4,245 bases of DNA from a virus (taxonomy: Duplodnaviria > Heunggongvirae > Uroviricota > Caudoviricetes): IMG/VR virus record IMGVR_UViG_2534682094_000010; one strand, given 5' to 3'. Positions 3,238-3,715 of the stretch are shown in pieces; the stretch's first letter is position 1, and every line of letters begins with the position of its first letter. The notes beneath the pieces were generated by a model. It saw only the letters and a list, made by a program, of their open reading frames with translations, did not search any database and was not told where the DNA came from. The position numbers and the translations under genes were made by a program.

Positions 3238-3310
3238 TATTATTTTACTCATGTTCTAACTAATTTAATATTTATATCGAACACTGATAATTATTCTATT
3301 GGTTAGCTAT
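3238..3310 (+). promoter_or_regulatory. AT-rich leader upstream of the lipoprotein gene; putative sigma70 promoter (weak hexamers, e.g. TTTACT at about 3244-3249 and TAATAT at about 3266-3271)
   Basis: A ~70 bp stretch, almost entirely A/T, lies immediately after the I stop codon and contrasts sharply with the GC-rich tail genes. Candidate -35 and -10 hexamers with ~16 bp spacing are visible but match consensus only 4/6 each. Position and composition fit a moron promoter; the exact hexamers are uncertain. Confidence 0.3.
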
Positions 3311-3649
3311 ATGAACAAAACGATTTTATTCTGCACGATTATTGCCTTAACAGGATGTAAATCTTTGGATTACGTAAAATCCGGAAAACCTGTAATGGAA
3401 GGTAATTCATTAAAAAATATTGATGAATTGTCAGGCTGCATATCCAGACAATGGGCTGGTAATGGAACACCTATAACATCCCTTCCTATTGAGAATGGGG
3501 TAAGCCTTTTAGTTCCACAGGCTATGGGGGGATATGATGTTGTGCTTGATATCAAAAAAGCAGGAAATGGCAGTAGTTTTACTCTTTATGAACGTGTACC
3601 AGCATTAACGCCAAAAATTTTTGCTGATAGTGTTAATGCATGTAAATAA
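3311..3649 (+). CDS. Small predicted lipoprotein (112 aa precursor) of unknown function; moron gene between I and J
   Basis: ATG at 3311; the ORF track starts at an upstream TTG at 3299. N-terminus MNKTILFCTIIALTG-C has a basic residue, a hydrophobic core and a lipobox L-T-G-C with Cys16, typical of a signal peptidase II substrate. The +2 residue is Lys, not Asp, so outer-membrane sorting would be expected in enterobacteria. Codon usage is strongly A/T-biased (by eye roughly one-third G+C versus well over 50% in flanking genes). Stop TAA at 3647-3649. No homologue recognised from memory. Confidence 0.7.
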   Translation: MNKTILFCTIIALTGCKSLDYVKSGKPVMEGNSLKNIDELSGCISRQWAGNGTPITSLPIENGVSLLVPQAMGGYDVVLDIKKAGNGSSFTLYERVPALTPKIFADSVNACK

Positions 3650-3672
3650 TAGTTAATCCTGTCGTAACTCAT

Positions 3673-3701
3673 GAGCCGCCTTTTGGGCGGCTTTGTTGTT
3701 T
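3673..3701 (+). terminator. Putative rho-independent terminator downstream of the lipoprotein gene
   Basis: AGCCGCC (3674-3680), loop TTTTG, GGCGGCT (3686-3692): a 7-bp GC-rich stem followed by the T-rich run TTGTTGTTT (3693-3701). It sits about 25 nt after the lipoprotein stop and just upstream of the J RBS. Confidence 0.55.
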
Positions 3702-3715
3702 ATGGAGTGTGAGGA

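Follow-up and report, generated by a model that had tools for sequence, protein, structure and literature searches.

What is the strongly AT-rich DNA that separates the tail genes I and J in a lambdoid prophage, and what might it do for phage or host? The DNA in question lies within IMG/VR record IMGVR_UViG_2534682094_000010, of which the whole 4,245-nucleotide stretch that was analyzed is referred to as the window. The window represents the tail region of a lambdoid prophage, from the 3′ end of the tape-measure gene through M, L, K and I into the 5′ part of the tail tip or host specificity gene J. A sequence-only reading had described ~480 bp of AT-rich DNA between I and J as an independently acquired moron consisting of a promoter-like leader, one small open reading frame (ORF) with A/T-biased codons and a terminator. 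The term moron is used in the lambdoid sense that reportedly goes back to a definition by Juhala and Hendrix. The gap and the ORF were borne out by measurement. The I stop codon (3235–3237) and the J initiation codon (ATG, 3716) are separated by 478 bp with a GC content of 0.35, compared to 0.566 in I and 0.574 in J. The single ORF, whose GC content is 0.363, specifies 112 amino acids, and its GC content at third codon positions is 0.239 compared to 0.56 in I and 0.68 in J. Overall, the block very probably is a mobile moron-type cassette that encodes a lipoprotein.

The block is a true presence/absence insertion that was acquired independently in an otherwise conserved operon. It was found with 95–100% identity in 337 of 5,426 complete Escherichia coli genomes, including UTI89, NU14, S88, IHE3034, APEC O1 and O104:H4. 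A query spanning both flanks recovered 8,785 similar I-J junctions in 4,351 of the 5,426 genomes, and the cassette was present in 334 genomes only; the flanks are ~60 bp apart at the empty junctions. Thus, presence of the gene at the I-J position in most close relatives, which the sequence-only reading had named as the circumstance that would speak against independent acquisition, was not what the genomes revealed. In UTI89 the block is inside a complete-looking prophage that adjoins the trp operon and a truncated ompW; RefSeq lists the ORF, flanked there by the genes for tail assembly protein I and gpJ, as encoding a hypothetical protein (WP_001332187.1). The tail module of strain 98195 is devoid of the cassette, and its L, K and J proteins share 97.8, 94.3 and 97.6% identity, respectively, with those of UTI89. 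The cassette also is missing from VT1-Sakai, PPompW prophages and vB_EcoS-640R1 despite J C-termini that are 97–99% identical. A megablast search of 50,697 phage genomes with the cassette produced no match. The presence and absence of the block in near-isogenic prophages provide a ready natural experiment that makes the cassette easy to test. The features of the region, all on the + strand, are as follows.

2596–3237, + strand: tail assembly protein I gene; the RefSeq start is an internal TTG at 2662
3238–3310, + strand: AT-rich leader of 73 nucleotides, GC content 0.205, with weak sigma-70-like candidates
3311–3649, + strand: lipoprotein gene, 112 amino acids, family phrog_914; signal peptide, lipobox, Cys43 and Cys111, predicted alpha+beta fold
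3650–3672, + strand: spacer after the stop codon; the gap in the alignment with empty sites closes at ~3665, where the inserted DNA proper ends on the right
3673–3703, + strand: intrinsic-terminator-like hairpin and interrupted T-tract, GAGCCGCC-TTTT-GGGCGGCT
3711–4245, + strand: J ribosome-binding site (GAGG, 3711–3714) and 5′ part of J, which starts at ATG 3716 and continues past the end of the window

When filled and empty junctions were aligned, the differences clustered at 3225–3236 and 3666–3708. The former comprise four synonymous changes in the last I codons, as well as the stop codon, compared to empty-site alleles and, as judged from the alignment, mark the left edge of a foreign haplotype. 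By the same reasoning the exchanged haplotype is placed at ~3225–3708, and the DNA that is without counterpart in empty sites at ~3238–3665. The base composition had been described as shifting abruptly at both edges. This holds on the left, with a sharp boundary at 3237. On the right, however, the composition changes at ~3665–3673 instead of 3715 because the hairpin and J ribosome-binding region have a normal GC content (0.535). Separately, the I proteins of the UTI89 prophage (L001, 19425–20000) and the cassette-free 98195 module (L082, 5840–6412) share only 77.5% identity, whereas L and J are ~98% identical, and megablast matches to many empty sites begin only at query base 107. These patterns suggest a mosaic joint inside I between the two prophages. 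The I-J junction also accommodates other cargo: an HNH endonuclease gene in mEp021 (L080, 1259–1825) and, in Pseudomonas phage D14P, a hypothetical ORF of 693 bp (L094, 5357–6049). The junction therefore looks like a recurrent insertion hotspot.

The ORF extends from ATG 3311 to 3649 and matches WP_001332187.1 of UTI89. The N-terminus of the product reads MNKTILFCTIIALTG followed by CKS, and contains the lipobox LTG/C that conforms to the pattern tested, [LVI][ASTVI][GAS]C. The signal peptide spans residues 1–15 (3311–3355), the predicted lipidated Cys16 is encoded at 3356–3358, and Lys occupies position +2. The +2 rule is established in E. coli, with Asp at this position acting as an inner-membrane retention signal. 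Lys at +2 therefore predicts Lol-dependent sorting to the outer membrane, and the product is a predicted outer-membrane lipoprotein. Pairwise ratios of nonsynonymous to synonymous substitution rates (dN/dS) compared to homologues were 0.06–0.28 wherever dS could be estimated, which identifies the ORF as a genuine gene subject to purifying selection. The AlphaFold2 model has an alpha+beta fold with a predicted local distance difference test score of 83.7 and a predicted template modeling score of 0.76. In the model, the first long helix contains Cys43 and the C-terminal helix Cys111, an arrangement in which the two residues probably form a periplasmic disulfide. The mature product would be a ~10.6 kDa alpha+beta domain in the periplasm. 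Minus-strand ORFs at 3339–3470 and 3370–3555 were considered as genes, but rejected as they lack homologues and overlap the + strand gene that is under purifying selection. A role as a tail assembly factor also was dismissed: near-isogenic tail modules that look functional do without the protein, and export together with a lipid anchor in the periplasm would keep it away from tail assembly in the cytoplasm. A literature search on WP_001332187 yielded nothing.

The cargo had not been recognized in the sequence-only reading. It can, however, be classified as a PHROG family 914 lipoprotein with homologues in sequenced phages: residues 1–112 match positions 1–118 of the 118-position phrog_914 profile (E-value 7.3e-33, 114.5 bits). 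The family is without assigned function, Pfam model or solved structure. Homologues with 48–62% identity occur in Klebsiella, Kluyvera, Enterobacter and Jejubacter, and an alignment of 12 sequences contains 31 invariant columns that include the motifs GCKSLD and MGGYDVVLD as well as C43 and C111. An exhaustive profile search retrieved ~125 cluster representatives, nearly all of 105–125 amino acids, and the lipobox was detected in 132 of 141 retrieved proteins. The +2 residue is Lys in the enterobacterial clade, is A, S, T, G, V or E elsewhere, and is D in none. Cysteines C16, C43 and C111 are invariant in an alignment of 41 diverse members. Pfam provided no family at E ≤ 1 for the window protein, the Bor family included, and no relevant family among the 41 members. 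Searches of Pfam, NCBIfam, PADLOC and PDB sequences produced nothing beyond matches to the signal peptide (VirB7, FlgP, Llp), and the defense models of PADLOC-DB matched neither the window protein nor three homologues. Alignment with Cor, Lpp021 and Lpp010 by hhalign was confined to the signal peptide, and the PDB profile search matched Llp (8a60_B) only at residues 1–19.

Two further observations concern the family. In P0091, a metagenomic protein of 1,047 amino acids, the lipoprotein-domain profile matches five stretches in which cysteine pairs are regularly spaced; the domain therefore also exists as a tandem array. In IMG/VR contigs L060 (3279–3613), L061 (6001–6335) and L062 (6001–6338) the frame of the lipoprotein gene is broken by indels of 1–2 nucleotides, and these copies are either pseudogenes or draft-assembly errors.

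Homologues are situated at three tail-operon junctions, namely between the G/T chaperone gene and the tape-measure gene H, between K and I, and between I and J, in phages of Escherichia, Klebsiella, Kluyvera, Serratia and Pseudomonas. The K-I junction is occupied by homologues with 48–59% identity (L064, L072, L073 and L074, and L083–L086 of Klebsiella) and by distant members in Escherichia phages Fraca and LMessi, Serratia phage OS31 and Pseudomonas aeruginosa phage D14P. Homologues in L065, L069 and L070 are found between the G/T chaperone and tape-measure genes. The L, K, I and J proteins around the homologues with 48–59% identity are only 30–40% identical to those of UTI89, and the GC content of every homologue examined is below that of its flanks. 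As the lipoprotein is more conserved than the neighboring tail proteins and shifts position between modules, the pattern is characteristic of a mobile unit made up of gene and terminator. The gene and hairpin recur together at three junctions of the tail operon, which neatly illustrates the mobility of morons. Certain loci depart from the common arrangement. The P0097 gene adjoins a Peptidase_M78 gene. In phiAH14a the superfamily member is p33 and not the tail-module lipoprotein p83; p33-p32 (L092, 4022–4942) places the homologue directly upstream of a second I-like gene that is far from the tail module and near to the repressor and cro genes; the lipoprotein gene and the I-like gene apparently relocated together. 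A Cor-like role was proposed by the authors of the phiAH14a study for a different lipoprotein at the K-I junction (PMC4936722). A second small ORF is located directly upstream of the homologue, with a 6-nucleotide spacer, in both Fraca (L002, 7725–7994) and LMessi (L003, 7647–7994), which suggests a two-gene cassette at K-I in these phages. The D14P homologue between K and I (vB_PaeS-D14P; L094, 4001–4291) is unannotated in the deposited record.

The terminator that had been counted as the third part of the cassette is present, but does not distinguish the cargo. The hairpin at 3673–3693 has a 9-bp stem with six G-C pairs, is followed by TTTGTTGTTTAT, and resembles a terminator more closely than any other site in the window. 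Nevertheless, empty I-J junctions, one lambda-like example included, possess homologous counterparts of the hairpin, T-tract and J ribosome-binding site at the same place (AAACCGCC-tgc-GGGCGGTTTTGTC..TTTATGGAGCGTGAGGAATG). As empty sites already carry the hairpin, it is not evidence for a self-contained cassette of three parts. The window hairpin is a distinct allele: its loop differs, and an A>G change is matched by a T>C change in such a way that the stem is preserved. This allele is present in 337–340 genomes, the same number as the cassette, and occurs only with the cassette. When spacers were folded one at a time, a hairpin with a T-run was identified 3′ of the lipoprotein gene in 12 of 13 loci that bear the gene, L063 being the exception. 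The hairpins of homologues are GC-rich, within ~50 nucleotides of the gene, and just before the ribosome-binding site of the next gene. In L073 (6319–6380) the hairpin after the lipoprotein gene at K-I, AACCACCtgcGGGTGGTT, differs from the empty-spacer hairpins of L075–L077 by little more than paired substitutions. The hairpin in lambda-type I-J spacers might therefore mark a site at which morons dock or from which they were excised, the alternative being convergence of short terminators. A scan of the window with Rfam had a sole match, to GcvB at 3476–3701, that was below threshold (19.6 bits compared to a gathering score of 42; E-value 0.33) and was rejected as a chance effect of T-rich sequence plus terminator.

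The promoter in the leader is at most a candidate. A strict scan identified no + strand sigma-70 site in the leader. A relaxed scan gave four candidates that each score 8/12 (among them TTTACT-N16/17-TAATAT/AATATT at 3244–3272 and TTTAAT-N16-GATAAT at 3264–3291), compared to a mean of 1.2 in shuffled sequences of which 5.9% reach four. Thus, the candidates are not clearly above the level in AT-rich shuffles. The Shine-Dalgarno sequence in the leader is weak (GGT, 3301–3303). The upstream spacers of homologues are 6–192 nucleotides, and several are only 6–30 bp. The placement of a terminator amid a late operon that is antiterminated provides a circumstantial hint that non-antiterminated transcription crosses the gene; this argument is weaker at the I-J site because the same hairpin is found at empty sites.

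How might the lipoprotein act? Superinfection exclusion or receptor masking is the most likely function as judged from predicted localization, genomic context and precedent, and is assigned a probability that approaches, but does not exceed, an even chance. Exclusion is favored because phage lipoproteins that have experimental support and are encoded in or beside tail or host-range genes all exclude. Cor acts on FhuA (PMC3594210), T5 Llp jams FhuA from the periplasm (PMC9586334), and Rtp45 acts likewise on LptDE (PMC12685063). The genes for Lpp021 and Lpp010 of mEpimmI, which are temperate E. coli siphophages, lie within the structural cluster, and the two proteins were demonstrated experimentally to exclude phages by receptor type (PMC11893012). 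The tail-operon moron product gp15 of HK97 also is an exclusion protein that blocks DNA entry (PMC3594210). The gene under study adjoins the host-specificity gene, being directly upstream of J in the window and one gene further upstream, at K-I, in most homologues.

In the proposed mechanism, a moron-type cassette, consisting of the mobile gene and downstream hairpin, would reside in the tail-tip cluster of a lambdoid prophage of the kind that integrates at ompW, next to trp. By analogy with Cor, T5 Llp, Rtp45 and mEpimmI Lpp, the lipoprotein would alter the envelope and thereby block adsorption or DNA entry of the same or related phages, which would shield lysogens and infected cells. Cor, Llp and Rtp45 are the model for the mode of action, in which the lipoprotein would bind to an outer-membrane protein from its periplasmic face. 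Progeny virions would, moreover, not be lost by adsorbing to cells already infected or to the debris of lysis. In lytic growth, transcription of the gene would be part of that of the antiterminated late operon. In the lysogen, where expression of the gene is presumed, the hairpin would keep transcripts that are not antiterminated, such as those initiated at a weak leader promoter, from entering J. Certain data weigh against exclusion. No homology to known exclusion lipoproteins was found in hhalign, Pfam and PDB profile searches; the protein is larger than these lipoproteins and its fold is different; a homologue coexists with Cor in Fraca; and the presence of the cassette does not track the receptor-binding end of J. 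The coexistence with Cor and the lack of correspondence with J leave some room for a reading in which a conserved step of entry is targeted instead of the J receptor. In its broadest form, phrog_914 and its ~112-residue relatives would be an unrecognized and widespread class of tail-operon exclusion proteins, namely outer-membrane lipoproteins with a disulfide-stapled alpha+beta fold, distributed from Enterobacteriaceae to Pseudomonas, structurally unrelated to Cor, Llp and Rtp45, and aimed at a conserved step in siphophage entry and not at the J receptor. A target of this type would explain both the linkage to gene I and the coexistence with Cor in one genome, but the proposal as a whole is decidedly improbable.

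Alternative functions also were weighed. The lipoprotein may be produced only in the late phase, without a promoter of its own, together with the tail proteins, and may condition the envelope shortly before lysis without benefit to the lysogen, for example by inactivating receptors so that virions escape debris and vesicles, or by assisting release in another manner. The empty strict promoter scan and the relaxed candidates that are not clearly above chance fit this possibility, as do the invariable orientation of the gene with the tail operon and the homologues with upstream spacers of 6–30 bp in which a strong Shine-Dalgarno sequence directly follows K or another ORF. T5 Llp also documents that exclusion proteins have a dual role in preventing adsorption to fragments of lysed cells (PMC12685063, PMC9586334). 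Nevertheless, the terminator directly downstream at nearly every locus is hard to explain if only antiterminated transcripts cross it, the AT-rich leaders of 73–86 nucleotides in E. coli and L065-type loci resemble typical moron leaders, and distant members are located in early or immunity regions (P0097 by Peptidase_M78; phiAH14a p33 near the repressor and cro). Expression confined to the late phase is considered unlikely. An action on a conserved envelope or tail-tip-linked step, in place of the variable J receptor, draws on genomic context: the protein might hinder passage of the tail tip or tape measure through the periplasm, or counter an activity linked to I or to K (JAB and NlpC/P60 domains). 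The enterobacterial clade retains GCKSLD and MGGYDVVLD although the neighboring J proteins are ~30% identical with unrelated C-termini, the gene adjoins I in most loci including the displaced lipoprotein-I pair of phiAH14a, Fraca has a separate Cor for receptor blocking, and HK97 gp15 blocks entry without touching the receptor (PMC3594210). As none of the fold matches suggests an inhibitor, and as the third insertion site, between the G/T and tape-measure genes, is not beside I, this explanation is very improbable.

A role in fitness or virulence of the host, in the manner of a Bor/Iss-type lipoprotein that confers serum resistance or envelope robustness in an animal, would place the benefit with the bacterium. 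Precedents exist in two morons of lambda, bor and lom. Moreover, the cassette is 100% identical in many strains of extraintestinal pathogenic E. coli (ExPEC) and avian pathogenic E. coli (APEC), namely UTI89, NU14, S88, IHE3034, APEC O1, UM146 and PMV-1, and the best fold match is the Francisella lipoprotein Flpp3, which the title of PDB entry 2mu4 calls a virulence determinant. However, the association with ExPEC may merely mirror clonal ST95-like lineages, and Pfam matches were entirely absent, including to the Bor family. Furthermore, homologues occur in phages of environmental (Antarctic) Pseudomonas and a Serratia phage from a mine biofilm, as well as in Klebsiella, Kluyvera and Enterobacter, and the recurrent placement at the tail tip beside gene I across genera points to a role centered on the phage. 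A host-fitness function is accordingly considered quite unlikely. Finally, the block might be a functionless passenger, either a decaying or a selfish insert at a permissive intergenic hotspot. The unrelated cargo at I-J (the mEp021 endonuclease gene and the D14P ORF), the 1–2 nucleotide indels in the copies in L060–L062 and the weak Shine-Dalgarno sequence of the E. coli allele are compatible with this scenario. It is scarcely credible in view of the strong purifying selection (dN/dS 0.06–0.28), the conservation of the lipobox and three cysteines over ~125 cluster representatives, and the 100% identity of the cassette in hundreds of genomes.

Elsewhere in the window, the region 1252–2448 has 37 single-base deletions and one insertion compared to UTI89 and every complete E. 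coli genome, with the best match covering 1,337 bases versus a query of 1,301 bases. The indels frameshift L and K; 12 of the 37 deletions are in runs of at least two identical bases, and there are few substitutions before a patch at 2416–2467. The indels look like sequence or assembly error and not gene decay. The patch itself, within K, has ~20 substitutions compared to UTI89 that are packed between near-identical sequences, and is probably a small recombination mosaic.

If superinfection exclusion proves to be the function, a structurally new family would join Cor, Llp, Rtp45 and mEpimmI Lpp on the short list of phage lipoproteins that are known to incapacitate routes of entry at the outer membrane. 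Patterns of phage resistance among ExPEC and APEC, for example in the lineages of UTI89, S88 and APEC O1, would then also become easier to explain, which is relevant to phage therapy.

How does the cassette compare with known systems? At the level of fold, the resemblance to Flpp3 (DUF3568) and to the N-terminal domain of BamC is accompanied by sequence identity of 6–13% and no family-level sequence signal, and is no better than that to many unrelated alpha+beta domains (KA1, DUF302 and Bet v 1-like). Cor of phi80, N15 and T1, T5 Llp and Rtp45 share with the window protein the status of phage lipoprotein, an outer-membrane sorting signal and a gene beside the host-specificity gene, but homology is limited to the signal peptide. 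The mature domain here is ~97 residues, globular and alpha+beta with a probable disulfide, in contrast to the ~6 kDa Cor, Llp and Rtp45 proteins, and its gene is upstream of J and co-oriented in the M-L-K-I-J cluster, whereas genes of the Cor, Llp and Rtp45 type are downstream of J. Fraca has both a homologue and a Cor. The Lpp021 and Lpp010 proteins have 72 and 82 amino acids, are encoded on the opposite strand just after J, and have no homology to this family. In contrast, length, lipobox and the C16/C43/C111 pattern are all shared with phrog_914 and the wider superfamily of ~112-residue proteins with three cysteines, from which the window protein displays no difference. Compared to the moron archetype, the terminator here is found also at cassette-free junctions and a strict scan finds no resident promoter. 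The closest parallel in organization is the HK97 gene 15 moron. Whereas gp15 is a YebO-like inner-membrane protein, the product here is a predicted outer-membrane lipoprotein, and the sequences are unrelated. Nevertheless, both cases involve extra DNA in the tail operon between genes that are adjacent in relatives, a GC content below that of the neighbors, and a single small ORF that encodes an envelope protein and precedes a terminator hairpin. Moreover, the homologues in L065, L069 and L070 sit at the exact junction, between the G/T chaperone and tape-measure genes, at which HK97 carries gene 15 (PMC3594210).

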